In this document: positions 37,335-41,822 of the stretch, piece after piece
Layout: every line of letters begins with the position of its first letter
Position numbering within the stretch: the first letter of the stretch is position 1
Assembly: GCA_963765205.1 (NCBI GenBank)
Contig: CAVXVB010000009.1
Coordinates: 1,248,001-1,312,000 of the forward strand
Length of the DNA stretch: 64,000 nucleotides
Direction of reading: 5' to 3'
Origin: an uncultured Verrucomicrobiae bacterium
Lineage (GTDB): Bacteria; Verrucomicrobiota; Verrucomicrobiia; Opitutales; JABDGR01
Made by a program: the position numbers and the translations under genes
Notes under the pieces: generated by a model
Seen by the model: only the letters and a program-made list of their open reading frames with translations
What the model was told of the DNA's origin: nothing
Database searches by the model: none

Positions 37335-38075
37335 ATGAAATTCATCGCCCATCGCGGAGCCTCCGCCCTCGCTCCTGAGAACACTGTCGCCGCCGTACGC
37401 TTGGCCGCTGCGCTGGGCGCGGATGGCGTCGAGGTGGACGTGCGGCTGACCCGCGACTGCCAGCTCGCTGTGCTCCACGACACCGACACGCGCCGCGTCG
37501 CGCCGAACCAGCCGGTCTATACCGCCAAGCGCCGCCGGTTGAAAGAGTTGCAGTCGCTGGATGTTGGTTCCTGGAAAGACCCGAAATTCGCGGGCGAACG
37601 CGTGCCTGCGCTCGGCGAAGTATTGGCCGCGCTCGGCCCGGAGCAGGAAATTTTCATCGAACTGAAGTCGCGCGAATACGACGAGATTCTGGCCAAGCTC
37701 AACCGCCTGCTCGACCCGCAGGCGGCGACCGGCTTTCCCGCCGCTCGCGTCGTGTTGATGAGTTTTGACGGCACGCTTGTGCGCAAAATCAAAAAGGCGC
37801 GGCCCGCCTGGCGCGTCCTGCTGCTGCTCAACCACAAGCCCTCGCGCCACCTGTATGGGCAAATTTTGTCGGCAGTGCGCGCTAAGTTCATAGACGGCAT
37901 TGGCCAAAACCGCACCTGGGCGCTCAAGGACGAGGAATATGCCGAGTTGCGCGAGAACGGCGCAATTTTGTCGGTCTGGACGGTGGATAATCCAACGGAA
38001 GTGGCGGCGTGGAAGAAATGGGGGTTTGATTATTTGACGAGCAATCGGGCGGAAAGGATGAAGGTTGAGGGATGA
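37335..38075 (+). CDS. Glycerophosphodiester phosphodiesterase family protein
   Basis: IAHRGASALAPENT, EVDVRLTRD, LHD, IELK, WTVDN. Confidence 0.92.
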   Translation: MKFIAHRGASALAPENTVAAVRLAAALGADGVEVDVRLTRDCQLAVLHDTDTRRVAPNQPVYTAKRRRLKELQSLDVGSWKDPKFAGERVPALGEVLAALGPEQEIFIELKSREYDEILAKLNRLLDPQAATGFPAARVVLMSFDGTLVRKIKKARPAWRVLLLLNHKPSRHLYGQILSAVRAKFIDGIGQNRTWALKDEEYAELRENGAILSVWTVDNPTEVAAWKKWGFDYLTSNRAERMKVEG

Positions 38076-38201
38076 AGGATGAAATTCCTGAATGCTGAAT
38101 TCTGATTACTGAATGCTCTAAAATAATTGCCTGCTGCTACCCGCGCTCGGAATTGTTCGCCAGCATTCAGCAATCGGCCTTTCCGGATTCATCCTTCATC
38201 C
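38056..38201. repeat. Nested inverted heptamer arrays
   Basis: Outer GGATGAA-type x4 (38056-38083) / TTCATCC x2 (38188-38201); inner CTGAATK-type x4 (38088-38115) / CAGCATTCAGCAATC (38161-38175). Confidence 0.8.
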
Positions 38202-38206
38202 TTATT

Positions 38207-38701
38207 TTAGCCTCTGATAATCTGTTCTGTCACCACAGCCAGCGGCTCCCCCGGCGCACAATCCGCGCGAATCGCCACAAATCCGCCGCGGTGCTGATCA
38301 AACCACGGCCAGACGAGCACTTTATCCGTCGGCGGGATAGGCAGCGCGTCAATTTCCTCACGCGGGAAAAAGGCAAATTCGCCCTCGTCGCCCGTAGGCG
38401 GCAACGCCGGAAGCGTTTTTTTGCAATCGAACAAAAACATCAGCCAGTGCCCGCCGCCTTCGTAATTTTTTTCGGAGATGTAGCCGAACAGGTGCAAATC
38501 CTGTGCGGTGACGGCCAAGCCGACCTCCTCGGCGGTTTCGCGGATGGCGCACTCGAAGGGCGATTCGCCGCGGGCCATTTCCAGCTTGCCGCCGATGGGG
38601 CTCCAGCAGCCGAGGTTGGGCGCCTTGCGCCGCTTGATAAGCAGCAGCCGCCCACGCGCCTCGCGCAAAAACACCAGCACGCTGATTTTGAACGCGGTCA
38701 T
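38207..38701 (-). CDS. NUDIX hydrolase
   Basis: Nudix box GGKLEMARGESPFECAIRETAEEVG. Confidence 0.9.
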   Translation of the reverse strand: MTAFKISVLVFLREARGRLLLIKRRKAPNLGCWSPIGGKLEMARGESPFECAIRETAEEVGLAVTAQDLHLFGYISEKNYEGGGHWLMFLFDCKKTLPALPPTGDEGEFAFFPREEIDALPIPPTDKVLVWPWFDQHRGGFVAIRADCAPGEPLAVVTEQIIRG

Positions 38702-38838
38702 TCCTTTTTTTTGAGTGTTACTTTTAGCGCGCGAATTTGCAAACTATTCGTTGAAGATGCTGTTATACGGGTATTGTATCGGCGCTAAAGCATTGAGCAT
38801 CTCGCCATTAAAGCCCAGCAATGGCGAAGGCGGAAAAA

Positions 38839-39091
38839 CTGCGTCGCTCGAAGTTCATTACTCGGGTGAGACTTGCTTTGCGGAATACCGGAAGTAGTCG
38901 CGCAGGTTGGCCCGCTGGCCCGCGCCTTGTTTATTGGTTGGCGTATGGGATTATATTCGCAAGCGGAATCGGTTGGCCGGGTCTTGCCTGGCGGTTACCG
39001 ATCTCGCCTGGTTGACCCATTCACTGCCGACTCCGTAAGCAACCCCCCCTGCGATGTCATCGCCAGTGGAACGCCCCTCGGGATCGAATTT
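38839..39091 (+). pseudogene. Possible heavily decayed AAA-ATPase/DUF4143 gene remnant
   Basis: LRRSKFITRVRLALRN then (shifted) PEVVAQVGP resembles this family's pre-Walker A region; GTPLGIEF resembles its C-terminal motif. Confidence 0.3.
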
Positions 39092-39434
39092 GGTCCAAGG
39101 ATTCTGGCAGACACACGTCTTCGACAGTCAGTGGACCACCCCAGCCCTGATTTCGCTTTTTTACGAAATATCTTGCAACCCCCTTGTTTTTTACTGGTTT
39201 AGTGTCGTTGTTATCAGGTATAGTCACCTTTCACCTCCTTCCACCATGAACTGGTCCATACATCTAATCGCTACGGCGGTATTCCTTACCAGGGAATCCC
39301 GTCGAGGTTCGTTGTGCCCCAGAATTCAAGCCCGGCAGAGCGATAATCCAATGCCTAAAGATTATCTGCAAACCGCAAATATTGGTGCATCCGGAAGTGA
39401 CAGGTCTTGAGCGATCGCTATCGTTAGCTTCGCC

Positions 39435-39465
39435 AACCCACTTCCCGCACGGAGGTGGGTTTTTT
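39435..39465 (+). terminator. Rho-independent terminator-like hairpin
   Basis: AACCCACTTCC-cgcac-GGAGGTGGGTT plus T tract. Confidence 0.65.
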
Positions 39466-39652
39466 GTTGGTCCAATCCGCAACCCGCCTCCTTTGCCCGC
39501 TTGAATACGCTTCTTTTGCAAATCCTTTCCGTGGCTTCACCGCTGAGCCCAATTGAATCAGCCTGCGCCCGCGCCAAATCCCGCGGCCGTCCAATCCGTT
39601 TGGCTATGGCCAGGCGAGAGGGGCGACGGTGTGTGTTCTTTTGCGAAAATTG

Positions 39653-39682
39653 TCCGGGTCACGATTTTTATCGTGACCCGGA
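39653..39682. promoter_or_regulatory. Perfect 13-bp-arm palindrome upstream of the tRNA array (candidate operator/UAS)
   Basis: TCCGGGTCACGAT-TTTT-ATCGTGACCCGGA, ~90 bp before the first tRNA. Confidence 0.5.
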
Positions 39683-39771
39683 TCGCCAGCCGGCGGCGTT
39701 ACGCCGGTAGTAAAGCCTGCGCGGCGCGTCCCTGAACTTTTTAGATCAGGCATTAGCCCCGCTCGCTTTGC

Positions 39772-39845
39772 CGTCTCGTCGTCTAACCAGTGCAGGATTT
39801 CGGCTTTTCACGCTGAAGATGCGGGTGCAACTCCCGTCGGGACGT
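39772..39845 (+). tRNA. tRNA-Glu(TTC), non-canonical T-loop
   Basis: Acceptor CGTCTCG/CGGGACG; anticodon arm TCGGC-TTTTCAC-GCTGA; T arm GCGGG-TGCAACT-CCCGT. Confidence 0.85.
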
Positions 39846-39855
39846 TCATTTTTAA

Positions 39856-39926
39856 GCGTGCGTGGCGAAGCAGCAACGCAGCGGTCTGCCAGTCCGCAGT
39901 CCCGGGTGCGACTCCCGGCGCGCGCA
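39856..39926 (+). tRNA. tRNA-Gly(GCC), non-canonical elbow
   Basis: Acceptor GCGTGCG/CGCGCGC; loop CTGCCAG; T arm CCGGG-TGCGACT-CCCGG. Confidence 0.82.
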
Positions 39927-39932
39927 AGTTTT

Positions 39933-40005
39933 GCAGCCTTGGTGTCAATAGCAGCACAGCGGACTTTTAATCCGCAAGGTGTGGGTGCAAGTCCCACAGG
40001 CTGCA
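39933..40005 (+). tRNA. tRNA-Lys(TTT), non-canonical elbow
   Basis: Acceptor GCAGCCT/AGGCTGC; GCGGA-CTTTTAA-TCCGC; GTGGG-TGCAAGT-CCCAC. Confidence 0.9.
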
Positions 40006-40014
40006 CGACTTTTA

Positions 40015-40087
40015 CGCGACGTGCCCGAGCAGCAAAGGGGCTGGTCTGCAAAACCAGTGAGCGCGGGTGCAAGTCCCGTCGTCGCGT
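40015..40087 (+). tRNA. tRNA-Cys(GCA), non-canonical elbow
   Basis: Acceptor CGCGACG/CGTCGCG, U73 discriminator; CTGGT-CTGCAAA-ACCAG; GCGGG-TGCAAGT-CCCGT. Confidence 0.9.
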
Positions 40088-40096
40088 CTATTTTTA

Positions 40097-40169
40097 GGGG
40101 GCATGGTGTTCAACAGCAACATTCGATGTTCGCATGGTCGAGATGCGGGTGCAACTCCCGCTGCCTCCA
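40097..40169 (+). tRNA. tRNA-Ala(CGC), non-canonical elbow
   Basis: Acceptor GGGGGCA/TGCCTCC keeps G3:U70 and A73; loop TTCGCAT; GCGGG-TGCAACT-CCCGC. Confidence 0.85.
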
Positions 40170-40177
40170 CGCTTTAC

Positions 40178-40250
40178 ACGTCCGTAGTTCCAGGGAACTG
40201 CCCGGTCTCCAAAACCAGGCGGGCAGGTGCGACCCCTGCCGGGCGTGCCA
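40178..40250 (+). tRNA. tRNA-Trp(CCA), 4-nt D-loop, encoded CCA
   Basis: Acceptor ACGTCCG/CGGGCGT + GCCA; D arm GTTC-CAGG-GAAC; loop CTCCAAA; GCAGG-TGCGACC-CCTGC. Confidence 0.8.
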
Positions 40251-40256
40251 ATTTTG

Positions 40257-40332
40257 GGAGGCTAAGCTAATCTAGTGAAAGCGCGCGGCTGAAGCCCGCG
40301 AGAGCGCGGCGCAAAACCGCGAGCCTCCACCA
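40257..40332 (+). tRNA. tRNA-Phe(GAA), non-canonical elbow, encoded CCA
   Basis: Acceptor GGAGGCT/AGCCTCC + ACCA; CGCGG-CTGAAGC-CCGCG; CGCGG-CGCAAAA-CCGCG. Confidence 0.85.
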
Positions 40333-40337
40333 TTTTC

Positions 40338-40408
40338 CGCGGGCTGGGCGAGGTCCCCGCCTGGTCTCATAAGCCACGGCGTGGCCGGTGCAACTCCGGC
40401 GCCCGCCA
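40338..40408 (+). tRNA. tRNA-Met(CAT), initiator-like, reduced D arm
   Basis: Starts CGCGGG with a 1:72 mismatch (C:C); loop CTCATAA; GCCGG-TGCAACT-CCGGC. Confidence 0.72.
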
Positions 40409-40419
40409 TTTTTCTTTAT

Positions 40420-40491
40420 CAGGCCATGGCAGAGCAGCAATGCACTCCGTTCGGGACGGAGACAGCGCCGGTGCAAGTCCGGCTGGCCTGA
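40420..40491 (+). tRNA. tRNA-Pro(CGG), non-canonical elbow
   Basis: Acceptor CAGGCCA/TGGCCTG + A73; CTCCG-TTCGGGA-CGGAG; GCCGG-TGCAAGT-CCGGC. Confidence 0.9.
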
Positions 40492-40500
40492 CTTTATTAC

Positions 40501-40573
40501 GCAGCGGAAGACAAACAGCAGAGTCGCCACCTTGTCACGGTGGAGAGAGCGGGGGCAGCACCCGTCCGCCGCG
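40501..40573 (+). tRNA. tRNA-Asp(GTC), divergent T-loop
   Basis: Acceptor GCAGCGG/CCGCCGC (one mismatch) + G73; CCACC-TTGTCAC-GGTGG; GCGGG-GGCAGCA-CCCGT. Confidence 0.8.
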
Positions 40574-40584
40574 CCCTTTTCGAT

Positions 40585-40657
40585 CGAGGCGTCGCCAAGC
40601 AGCCAAGGCATCTGGCCTACACCCAGACACGCGGGGGTGAGAGTCCCTCCGCCTCGA
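40585..40657 (+). tRNA. tRNA-Val(TAC), C33 and divergent T-loop
   Basis: Acceptor CGAGGCG/CGCCTCG + A73; TCTGG-CCTACAC-CCAGA; GGGGG-TGAGAGT-CCCTC. Confidence 0.75.
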
Positions 40658-40666
40658 CCCTTTCCT

Positions 40667-40740
40667 TGCCGGGTAGCTCAACAGCAGAGTGTCCGGTTGT
40701 TACCCGGATGATGCAGGTGCGATTCCTGCCCCGGCAGCCA
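40667..40740 (+). tRNA. tRNA-Asn(GTT), non-canonical elbow, encoded CCA
   Basis: Acceptor TGCCGGG/CCCGGCA + GCCA; TCCGG-TTGTTAC-CCGGA; GCAGG-TGCGATT-CCTGC. Confidence 0.9.
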
Positions 40741-40743
40741 TTA

Positions 40744-40780
40744 GCGGGTGGTGGGACAGAAGCAAGAGCGCCGGCTCATA
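40744..40780 (+). pseudogene. 5' half of a 13th tRNA (CAT anticodon), truncated
   Basis: GCGGGTG..CAGAAGCA..GCCGG-CTCATA, then the sequence switches to the RAYT element end; no T arm follows. Confidence 0.55.
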
Positions 40781-40783
40781 GCA

Positions 40784-41822
40784 GGGGTCAGGCTGCACCT
40801 TATTACCTTGACAGAACCAACCTTCCCGCAAATTCTATCGATTATGCCGCGCAAACTACGCTTGGAATTCCCGGGAGCCGTTTACCACGTCATCAACCGG
40901 GGGAACTACCGCCACGACATTTTTGCCACCAGCGGGGCGCGGGCGGCTTTCATGAGTTGTGTCTGGGAGGCCTGCCAAAAATCGGGCTGGCGGCTGCACG
41001 CCTATGTGCTCATGCGCAACCATTACCACCTGGCGCTGGAAACCCCCAAAGGCAACCTGGTGGCGGGCATGCAATGGCTGCAGGCGACGTTTGCCAACCG
41101 CTTCAACCGGCTCCGCGGCGAGCGCGGGCATCTCTTTCAAGGACGCTACAAGGCTTTGCTGGTCGAACCCGGCGCGGCGCTGGGCCAGTTGTGCCACTAC
41201 ATCCACCTGAACCCCGTGCGCGCCAAAGTCGTGACCGTCGAGCGGTTGAGAAAATTCCGCGATTCCAGCTATTGGCAGCTTTGGCATCGGGCGGAACGTC
41301 CGCCTGCCCTGTGCGTGCAGACGGCGCTGCGGCAGGCGGGCGGCTTGGCCGACACCCCTGGCCGGGCATGCAGCCTACGAAAAATTTCTCGCCTGGCAGG
41401 CCGCGCACGGGCCGGTCGGGCGCAACCAGGCTTATGTGTCCCTGAGCCGGGGCTGGGTGCTGGGCAGCCCGACATTCAAGGAAAACCTGCTCAAGGAACA
41501 CTCCTTGGCCGCCGACACCCGCGCCTGGGAAACCAGCGGCAAAACCCACATCCGCCAGCGCGCATGGGACCCGCGCCCTGCGGGAGGGCTTGCACCGCTT
41601 GCGCCAGCCCGAAAAAAATCTCACCGCGGGCCACTTGGCGCAGCCGTGGAAGATTGCCTTGGCGCTGTTCTTGAAGCAAACCACCCAAGCCTCGAATCCC
41701 TGGCTCGCCCTTCATTTCGGCTCGCCCAGCCCCACCTACCTCAGCAAACTCATCTGCACCCACCGCCATGACCCCCAACTCCACCCCTTCCTCCAAAAAC
41801 TCAGGTAAAAAGGTGCAGCCTG
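40784..41822 (+). mobile_element. RAYT/Y1-type transposase element with short terminal inverted repeats
   Basis: GGGGTCAGGCTGCACCTT at left and AAGGTGCAGCCTG at right (13-bp perfect IR) flanking the transposase. Confidence 0.7.
40844..41808 (+). CDS. REP-associated tyrosine (HUH/Y1) transposase, apparent frameshifts near 41360 and 41570
   Basis: MPRKLRLEFPGAVYHVINRGN, AYVLMRNHYHL (HUH), GHLFQGRYKA, YIHLNPVRA, SSY. Confidence 0.85.

Follow-up and report, generated by a model that had tools for sequence, protein, structure and literature searches.

Why should 12 neighbouring transfer RNA (tRNA) genes of one bacterium all depart, and in the same way, from one of the near-invariant contacts of the tRNA fold? 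The question is raised by a 64,000-nt stretch of contig CAVXVB010000009.1 from an uncultured Verrucomicrobiae bacterium (the whole stretch is hereafter the window), in which positions 39772-40740 of the forward strand hold 12 tRNA-shaped genes head to tail, for 12 amino acids, with spacers of 6–11 nt. In the available parts of two reviews, the pairing of G18 with pseudouridine 55 (Psi55) in the elbow is a near-invariant tertiary contact, with U55 and G18 treated as conserved (PMC7912444, PMC4810234); neither G55 nor A18 is mentioned there. Here we argue, with a probability of roughly 0.6, that a long, horizontally mobile tRNA array of the L-array type is represented here by its 5′ half, with an elbow redesigned around A18 and G55; such an array would have provided a spare, nuclease-resistant tRNA pool, and this copy of it is now partly eroded.

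Twelve cloverleafs with an altered elbow

A hairpin scan for T arms (5-bp stem, 7-nt loop, G at the second loop position) found 12 of them, spaced about 80 nt apart, and an explicit parse placed each one inside a full cloverleaf with six or seven of seven acceptor pairs and four or five of five anticodon-stem pairs. All 12 T loops have G at position 55 and none reads TTC. On the other side of the elbow, A-G-(C/U) replaces the usual G-G in 10 of the 12 D loops, typically AGCAGCA against the canonical AGCGGUA, and the other two are very short: 4-nt CAGG in the Trp unit and 4–5 nt, with a poorly paired D stem, in the Met unit. Among the conserved elbow positions, U55 is retained in 0, U54 in 10, A58 in 11 and G19/C56 in 11 of the 12 units, and A precedes G19 in 10. 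Identity elements are present in Ala (G3:U70), Cys (U73) and Asp, Asn and Trp (G73). Scan and parse confirm what the initial annotation had read from the letters of the window, namely the 12 cloverleafs with their coordinates and T loops, the ten AG(C/T) D loops with two short ones, and the identity elements.

All 12 units have the cloverleaf architecture of the Rfam tRNA family (RF00005) and depart from its conserved elbow nucleotides. The family's gathering threshold of 29 bits is reached by five units in a scan of the whole window and by seven in a local scan, these seven scoring 44–62 bits. ARAGORN likewise calls seven of the 12, and under-calling of this kind by tRNA finders implies that annotation overlooks extra tRNA sets. 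The units are as follows, with scores given in bits against Rfam tRNA and percentages as identity to the ortholog in G008, a genome of the same family but another genus.

39772..39845, +: tRNA-Glu(UUC); T loop TGCAACT, D loop with AGT; ARAGORN; 44.1 bits; 93%
39856..39926, +: tRNA-Gly(GCC); T loop TGCGACT, D loop AGCAGCA; ARAGORN; 51.9 bits; 96%
39933..40005, +: tRNA-Lys(UUU); T loop TGCAAGT; ARAGORN; 57.9 bits; 89%
40015..40087, +: tRNA-Cys(GCA); U73, T loop TGCAAGT; ARAGORN; 56.6 bits; 88%
40097..40169, +: tRNA-Ala(CGC); T loop TGCAACT, G3:U70; 18.5 bits; G31.G39 mismatch in this genome only, the G008 ortholog (UGC anticodon) being paired there
40178..40247, +: tRNA-Trp(CCA); T loop TGCGACC, 4-nt D loop CAGG, irregular anticodon stem; CCA encoded; ARAGORN; 94%
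40257..40329, +: tRNA-Phe(GAA); T loop CGCAAAA (C54), kept in G008; CCA encoded; compensatory 7:66 change
40338..40408, +: tRNA-Met(CAU)-like unit; T loop TGCAACT; C1.C72 and C27.C43 mismatches, weak D stem; diverged G008 ortholog with six compensatory pair changes
40420..40491, +: tRNA-Pro(CGG); T loop TGCAAGT, D loop AGCAGCA; ARAGORN; 52.4 bits; no unit at that place in G008
40501..40573, +: tRNA-Asp(GUC), eroded; T loop GGCAGCA (G54, G58), A3.C70; G008 ortholog with TGCAACA and A3:U70
40585..40657, +: tRNA-Val(UAC); C33, T loop TGAGAGT, with C56 changed to A in this genome only; 45.9 bits
40667..40737, +: tRNA-Asn(GUU), the last unit; T loop TGCGATT; CCA encoded; ARAGORN; 61.7 bits; 98.6%

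A hairpin match at 40738 was considered as a 13th member and set aside, as it lies outside any cloverleaf. A cut-short 13th tRNA 3′ of Asn (40738-40830) was likewise rejected, this segment having no significant similarity to any of 1281 tRNAs.

The host's own tRNAs do not share this elbow. The genome (4.02 Mb in 12 contigs) has 48 other tRNAs called by ARAGORN, and these read TTC at positions 54–56 in 48 of 48 cases and carry the D-loop GG in 47, so that the array is distinct from the housekeeping tRNAs, as the initial annotation had supposed. No second cluster of such T arms was found elsewhere in this genome. All 12 array anticodons recur among the 48, making the array supernumerary, with no new anticodon; its units are 57–72% identical to the host isoacceptors and have the same discriminator base in at least nine of 12. 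The low identity, together with the duplication of every anticodon, argues that the array is an extra tRNA set whose origin is separate from that of the housekeeping set. Eukaryote-like T-run terminators after the units were also considered and rejected: TTT occurs within 12 nt 3′ of 11 of the 12 units and of 38 of the 48 housekeeping tRNAs, which is ordinary for this genome.

Covariation of positions 18 and 55

Relatives were sought with a pattern of two T arms 60–90 nt apart in which the T arm alone was fixed; the same pattern read backwards served as control. Arrays were matched in three of 101 related genomes and in 10 of 401 genomes of a phylum sample, and the reversed pattern matched in none of either set. 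These searches bear on the possibility that the array is an artefact, composed of chance hairpins, of a REP-type repeat family, or of phage DNA joined to a bacterial contig by chimeric assembly. The genome is indeed a draft, and REP-like repeats and Y1 transposase-like genes abound in the genus. Against this, 12 different anticodons stand in full cloverleafs, two other genomes hold orthologs in synteny, the locus is embedded among housekeeping genes within a contig of 1.5 Mb, and the reversed controls are empty. We regard an artefact as very improbable indeed.

Applied more widely, the T-arm-only pattern matched at least 132 stretches in one-genome-per-species bacterial contigs and at least 133 stretches in viral contigs; the counts given below are among the matches listed. 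Multi-hit bacterial clusters came from records titled Verrucomicrobiota, Planctomycetota, Gemmatimonadaceae, Myxococcota, Acidobacteriota and others. The loci hold 560 bacterial and 721 viral distinct ARAGORN tRNAs, numbers that are inflated by relatedness and in which, the loci having been chosen by their T arms, the variant share is not a population frequency. Because the pattern constrained the T arm alone, the state of the D loop is an independent read-out. Classed by D loop and positions 55–56, the bacterial tRNAs comprise 278 with AG and GC, 227 with GG and UC, 22 with GG and GC and two with AG and UC; the corresponding viral counts are 304, 334, 49 and three. A finer table, built on ARAGORN folds and a positional rule that left 466 of 1280 tRNAs ambiguous or unassigned, gives for positions 18/55 A/G in 252, G/U in 60, A/U in none and G/G in two of the unambiguous bacterial cases, and 300, 141, two and none, respectively, of the viral ones (combined: A/G 552, G/U 201, mixed four). 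A18 is present in 552 of the 558 unambiguous G55 cases. In these loci, position 18 is seen to covary almost perfectly with position 55, which bears out the covariation that the initial annotation had proposed to test in homologous arrays.

The rule also holds unit by unit. Arrays outside Verrucomicrobiota mix canonical and variant tRNAs without breaking it, and close homologs switch both positions together: 28 close-homolog pairs cross the two classes, among them two Leu-GAG genes, 89% identical, one with G-G and U-U-C and the other with A-G and U-G-C. Viral contigs of 275, 160 and 131 kb carry 23–31 tRNAs each, nearly all variant. On a 29-kb viral contig, 17 of 21 tRNAs have TGC at 54–56, beside genes for a head protease, a major head protein and RtcB, and other viral arrays are interspersed with HNH endonuclease genes. 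By this comparison of loci, the elbow design is inherited with the array, and the same design is common in phage tRNA clusters. Thus the double change that the initial annotation saw in 12 isotypes is present, but it did not arise in this genome; it came with a family of mobile arrays whose members already carry it, as do many phage tRNA sets.

Isotypes differ in how often they follow the variant. Met accounts for eight of the 16 non-G55 tRNAs in mostly variant viral sets. In viral loci that are nearly all A18/G55 (L168, L210, L222 and others), Met occurs as four variant and eight canonical G18/U55 genes. tRNA-Ser is rarely variant (3 versus 15 in bacteria, 3 versus 36 in viruses). These distributions suggest isotype-specific constraints on the elbow for Met and Ser. 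Separately, the reverse-Hoogsteen pair is flipped in some 4–6% of T loops with G55, A54 facing U58 where U54 and A58 are usual.

Relatives, mobility and decay of the array

The closest relatives of the array among the matches listed are in metagenome-assembled genomes (MAGs) titled Opitutus or Verrucomicrobi-. In G008 the order is Glu-Gly-Lys-Cys-Ala-Trp-Phe-Met-Asp-Val-Asn, that of the window array minus Pro; 10 of these units are 85–99% identical to their window orthologs, and BLAST gives no match for the Met unit because of its divergence. Past Asn, at least 10 further tRNAs follow in the G008 array (Pro, Gln, Lys, Met, Thr, Leu, Thr, Arg, Arg, Ile), and an Opitutus-titled MAG has the same gene order and more units. 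The window array stops at Asn and is followed by a 39-nt genome repeat and a transposase-like gene. Set beside its relatives, the window copy is the 3′-truncated, partly eroded front half of a mobile long tRNA array. The features that flank the 12 units are these.

39528..39648, +: conserved non-coding leader 5′ of the array (nhmmer and BLAST); predicted hairpins; no Rfam match
39654..39681, +: hairpin between the leader and the first tRNA; four pairs changed on both sides, compensatory across three genomes (alignment columns 152-176)
40773..40811, +: short repeat where the array breaks off on its 3′ side; 100% copy at C9:900246-900284, weaker copies on C7 and C8
40844..41674, +: IS200-like (Y1_Tnp) transposase-like gene directly 3′ of the array (Pfam PF01797, E 8.7e-12); multi-copy in same-genus genomes

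The leader, about 120 nt long, is conserved in three genera (93% identity to G008 and 78% to the Opitutus-titled MAG), and in both of those genomes its homolog sits just 5′ of the array's first tRNA. It may be a promoter or regulatory region of the array, or a small RNA. A sigma-54-type promoter, looked for by eye in the leader, was dropped as unconserved between genomes, and no Rfam match was found in 38700-39800. In four genomes of the same genus that have the GDPD/NUDIX flank, neither array nor leader was found, and in G008 the leader and array lie on contigs other than those carrying the GDPD/NUDIX flank genes. The empty flank in the one case and the different context in the other argue that leader and array travel, or disappear, together. 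Conservation with G008 reaches about 350 nt further upstream (39166-39520) and includes a terminator-like hairpin (39435-39461). An upstream open reading frame (ORF; 39054-39410) is likewise conserved with G008; having no Pfam match and a sequence unlike that of a protein, it is probably not a gene.

Arrays of this general kind are known. In the available part of PMC8421152, L-arrays are described as supernumerary, spread by horizontal gene transfer and found in Verrucomicrobia among other phyla, with the one in Anabaena induced by translational stress. The suggestion in the initial annotation of a stress-induced backup pool matches that published concept. The window array resembles L-arrays (PMC8421152), of which the Anabaena sp. 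PCC 7120 trn operon is one, and tRNA array units (PMC4758250) in being co-oriented, dense, multi-isotype, supernumerary and patchily distributed; its relatives carry HNH endonuclease genes. Unlike them, it has only 12 surviving genes and no HNH gene beside them: no HNH match was found among the six ORFs nearest to it, whereas HNH genes stand beside or inside related arrays. Tran et al. define a tRNA array unit by at least 20 genes at a density of at least two per kb (PMC4758250); here there are 12 genes in 0.97 kb, and the syntenic relatives continue with at least 10 more units. The elbow is another matter. The available text of PMC8421152 contains the terms T-loop, D-loop, elbow, G18, U55 and G55 zero times, and that of PMC4758250 contains 'loop' once, for the anticodon loop. 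Full-text literature searches, with subscription journals and supplements outside their scope, turned up no description of a concerted A18/G55 elbow. What is already known, then, covers tRNA arrays, their mobility and a possible backup role; for the concerted elbow we found no printed account.

How much of the window copy could still be working? The 10 orthologous units of the window and G008 were compared at 210 stem pairs, of which 180 are identical, 13 have changed on both sides and seven on one side while still pairing, four are broken only in the window genome, three only in G008, and three are mismatched in both. Changes that keep a pair therefore outnumber those that break one by 20 to 7. 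The tRNA units (85–99%) are also better conserved between the two genomes than the adjoining 503-nt block (78%). Stems kept by compensatory changes and a conservation above that of the flank point to selection rather than simple decay, as the initial annotation had held, and mark purifying selection on the cloverleaf since the divergence of the two genera. The C54 in the Phe T loop and the C33 in Val, where U33 is normally invariant in tRNA, are common to the window genome and G008 and for that reason read as features rather than decay.

Other changes are private to the window genome: G31.G39 in Ala, A3.C70 with G54 and G58 in Asp, the change of C56 to A in Val, and C27.C43 in Met. The well-paired stems of the initial annotation thus stand as 12 cloverleafs, but were overstated for a copy that is truncated after Asn and damaged in Ala, Asp, Val and Met. 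CCA is encoded in only three of the 12 units, against almost throughout in the Opitutus-titled relative; since 22 of the 48 housekeeping tRNAs also lack an encoded CCA, its loss is probably harmless. By these alignments, the window copy is past its prime, with lineage-specific damage in four or five units, and this damage together with the cut-off after Asn suggests that at most part of the array still works.

Taken further, the same observations could describe a dead relic: an array that came in by horizontal transfer and was left without its 3′ half or its regulation, its tRNA genes now being pseudogenes that contribute nothing and its elbow a fossil of a phage-like source. A 3′ end cut short at Asn next to a repeat and a Y1 transposase-like gene, the private defects in Ala, Asp, Val and Met, the loss of encoded CCA from nine of 12 units, the five units under the Rfam threshold and the failure to find companion genes in the window genome would all fit such a relic, as would the view, expressed in the available part of PMC8421152, that most L-arrays are poorly expressed. 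A relic would not be expected to favour pair-keeping changes as strongly as seen against G008, with only four breaks in the window genome, nor to leave seven units scoring 44–62 bits, a leader and hairpin conserved, and tRNA units more conserved than their flank; and the missing CCA, being shared with so many housekeeping tRNAs, tells little. We consider a wholly dead array possible, though on balance unlikely.

A possible function for the A18–G55 elbow

Our preferred reading, a mobile array with a redesigned elbow that served as a spare tRNA pool, can be given a structural basis. The T loop U54-G55-C56-R57-A58, together with the D-loop A18-G19, would form a generic T-loop solution, with G at position 2 and A as intercalator, in place of the tRNA-specific Psi55 and G18, while G19:C56 is retained in 11 of the 12 units. 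In the available part of a study of flavin mononucleotide (FMN) and cobalamin riboswitches, their T loops read YGNRA, UGHAA being best, the base intercalating between positions 4 and 5 is almost always A, and tRNA T loops are said to differ from other T loops at position 2 (10.1101/2022.12.26.521914). The window array resembles these modules: YGNRA fits 11 of its 12 T loops, the exception being Asp (GGCAG), and A stands before G19 in 10 D loops. It differs from them in its setting, the riboswitch modules being intramolecular contacts of messenger RNA leaders and the array's being a tRNA elbow, where U or Psi at position 2 and a G intercalator are thought to be the rule. A second likeness is to the tymovirus tRNA-like structure (RF00233), whose consensus has the T loop UGCAACU, the same as the array's TGCAACT, and a CCAGU D loop, and whose D/T-loop association is nearly identical to that of tRNA according to the available part of PMC4810234. 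That element belongs, however, to the 3′ untranslated region of plant RNA viruses; its scores in the window (21.2, 19.2 and 18.4 bits) lie below the family threshold of 40 and reflect the shared elbow only.

In the proposed mechanism, transcription from the conserved leader would yield a single precursor, out of which RNase P and a 3′ endonuclease would release the tRNAs, with CCA added where it is not encoded, and host synthetases would charge the products through the retained identity elements. The available parts of the two reviews describe the outer face of G19:C56 as being read by the ribosome, RNase P and T-boxes (PMC4810234), and name TruB as the enzyme that makes Psi55 and TrmH as that which makes Gm18 (PMC7912444). 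As neither modification can be made on G55 or A18, the set would need no elbow modification. It may also escape attack. The CRISPR-associated Schlafen nuclease CbCash is described, in the available part of a 2026 report, as cutting the tRNA T loop 5′ of U55 and targeting UUC, its cleavage being abolished by single mutations of U54 or U55; whether phage tRNAs are among its targets is stated there as an open question (PMC13462974). Since a G55 tRNA lacks the UUC (U54-U55) site, resistance to nucleases that require U54-U55 is predicted, and nuclease escape is, by this analogy, a plausible purpose of G55, the array being a spare, attack-proof pool. Such a purpose would make sense of why phages and mobile arrays carry the design so abundantly, of its frequent HNH, Ro60/TROVE and RtcB neighbours, and of a weak Y RNA-like match that lies between an array and a Ro60 gene.

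Several points weigh against this reading as a whole. Besides the private damage, the sparse encoding of CCA and the sampling limits on the covariation counts noted above, five of the 12 units fall under the Rfam tRNA threshold. The resistance of G55 is drawn from mutations in canonical tRNA. Partner genes (HNH, Ro60/TROVE, RtcB) were not found next to the window array, and TROVE (PF05731), RtcB (PF01139) and Schlafen (PF04326) have no match in the window genome, although absence is not thereby shown, the assembly being 92% complete. G55 is also absent from all three cultured phages inspected, namely Gordonia phage Octobien14 (6 tRNAs), Mycobacterium phage Alice (19) and Tunturiibacter phage Tunturi_5 (16), whose elbows are canonical; these candidates came from BLAST of the viral arrays and the window array against named phages.

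Some phage tRNA clusters have been proposed to evade tRNA-targeting defences, reportedly through anticodon-loop changes, with no change of the elbow known to be described. The likeness to such clusters is that A18/G55 fills near-complete tRNA sets on large viral contigs, interspersed with HNH and RtcB genes; unlike them, the window array is chromosomal, has no phage genes among its neighbours, and yielded no close phage homolog of its 12 tRNAs by BLAST. A wider and more speculative account would make A18/G55 a counter-defence: phages, and the arrays derived from them, would have rebuilt the elbow on the generic T-loop and lost the U54-U55 site of Schlafen/Cash-type nucleases, with no need of TruB or TrmH, and bacteria would have kept the arrays, often beside Ro60/RtcB, as a translation set that survives attacks on tRNA, whether from the cell itself or from a rival. 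We offer this account tentatively and think it less probable than otherwise. If true, a single cell would hold two tRNA pools that differ in structure and are insulated from each other.

The Ro60 and RtcB neighbours lend themselves to a different explanation, in which the RNAs are made but do not decode, acting as decoys or sponges that occupy tRNA-targeting nucleases, or else serving an RNA repair and quality-control module of Ro60, Y RNA and RtcB as its substrates or partners. RNA-repair loci with Ro60 (Rsr), Y RNA and RtcB are reportedly known in bacteria; we found no description of a link between them and tRNA arrays. Among the matches listed, variant arrays adjoin TROVE/Ro60 genes in 10 loci and RtcB in five. 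In the Opitutus-titled MAG (L027), the array is followed by a YrlA-like match (2877-2942, −; 39.7 bits, below the threshold of 69), a TROVE/Ro60 gene (563-2053, −) and then more tRNAs. The Val C33, conserved in two genomes, would also suit RNAs that do not decode. Unlike such repair loci, however, the window genome yielded neither Ro60 nor RtcB, and decoys would have no need of what these arrays preserve: coverage of nearly all amino acids, proper anticodon loops, isotype-specific identity elements, and discriminator bases that match the host isoacceptor in at least nine of 12 units. We judge a purely non-decoding role to be improbable.

Returning to the reading of a mobile, elbow-variant tRNA pool, its interest extends beyond this locus. 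Nearly all isotypes are represented among the several hundred natural tRNAs, from phages and from mobile arrays of bacteria, that have exchanged G18-Psi55 for A18-G55 in a concerted way and kept the rest. They form a natural test set for the contribution of Psi55, Gm18 and the identity of the 18/55 pair, as well as for the elbow tolerance of RNase P, RNase Z, the CCA-adding enzyme, EF-Tu and the ribosome. They bear on the question, raised in 2026, of phage tRNA escape from T-loop-cutting defence nucleases, and the A18/G55 design may serve in orthogonal or nuclease-resistant tRNAs.

Some observations concern the surroundings. Upstream of the array lie genes for an S41 peptidase, an ABC transporter, a thioesterase, GDPD and NUDIX (NUDIX by Pfam, the others read from translations), and downstream lie the Y1 transposase-like gene, a GPR1/YaaH-family gene, chorismate synthase and an ABC-F protein (Y1_Tnp and GPR1/YaaH by Pfam, the others from translations). 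In the cultured phage Tunturi_5 (L298, PP885688.1 233401-247524), the 16 ARAGORN tRNAs, with their canonical elbows, fall in gaps without annotated tRNA features, and the region also holds RtcB, HNH, NUDIX and CCA-adding enzyme genes. Finally, an element of 30–60 nt between the GDPD and NUDIX genes of the window (38043-38114) recurs in dozens of copies at 90–97% identity in same-genus genomes. It looks like a REP-type repeat, in keeping with the large number of Y1 (IS200-like) transposase-like genes that the genus has.

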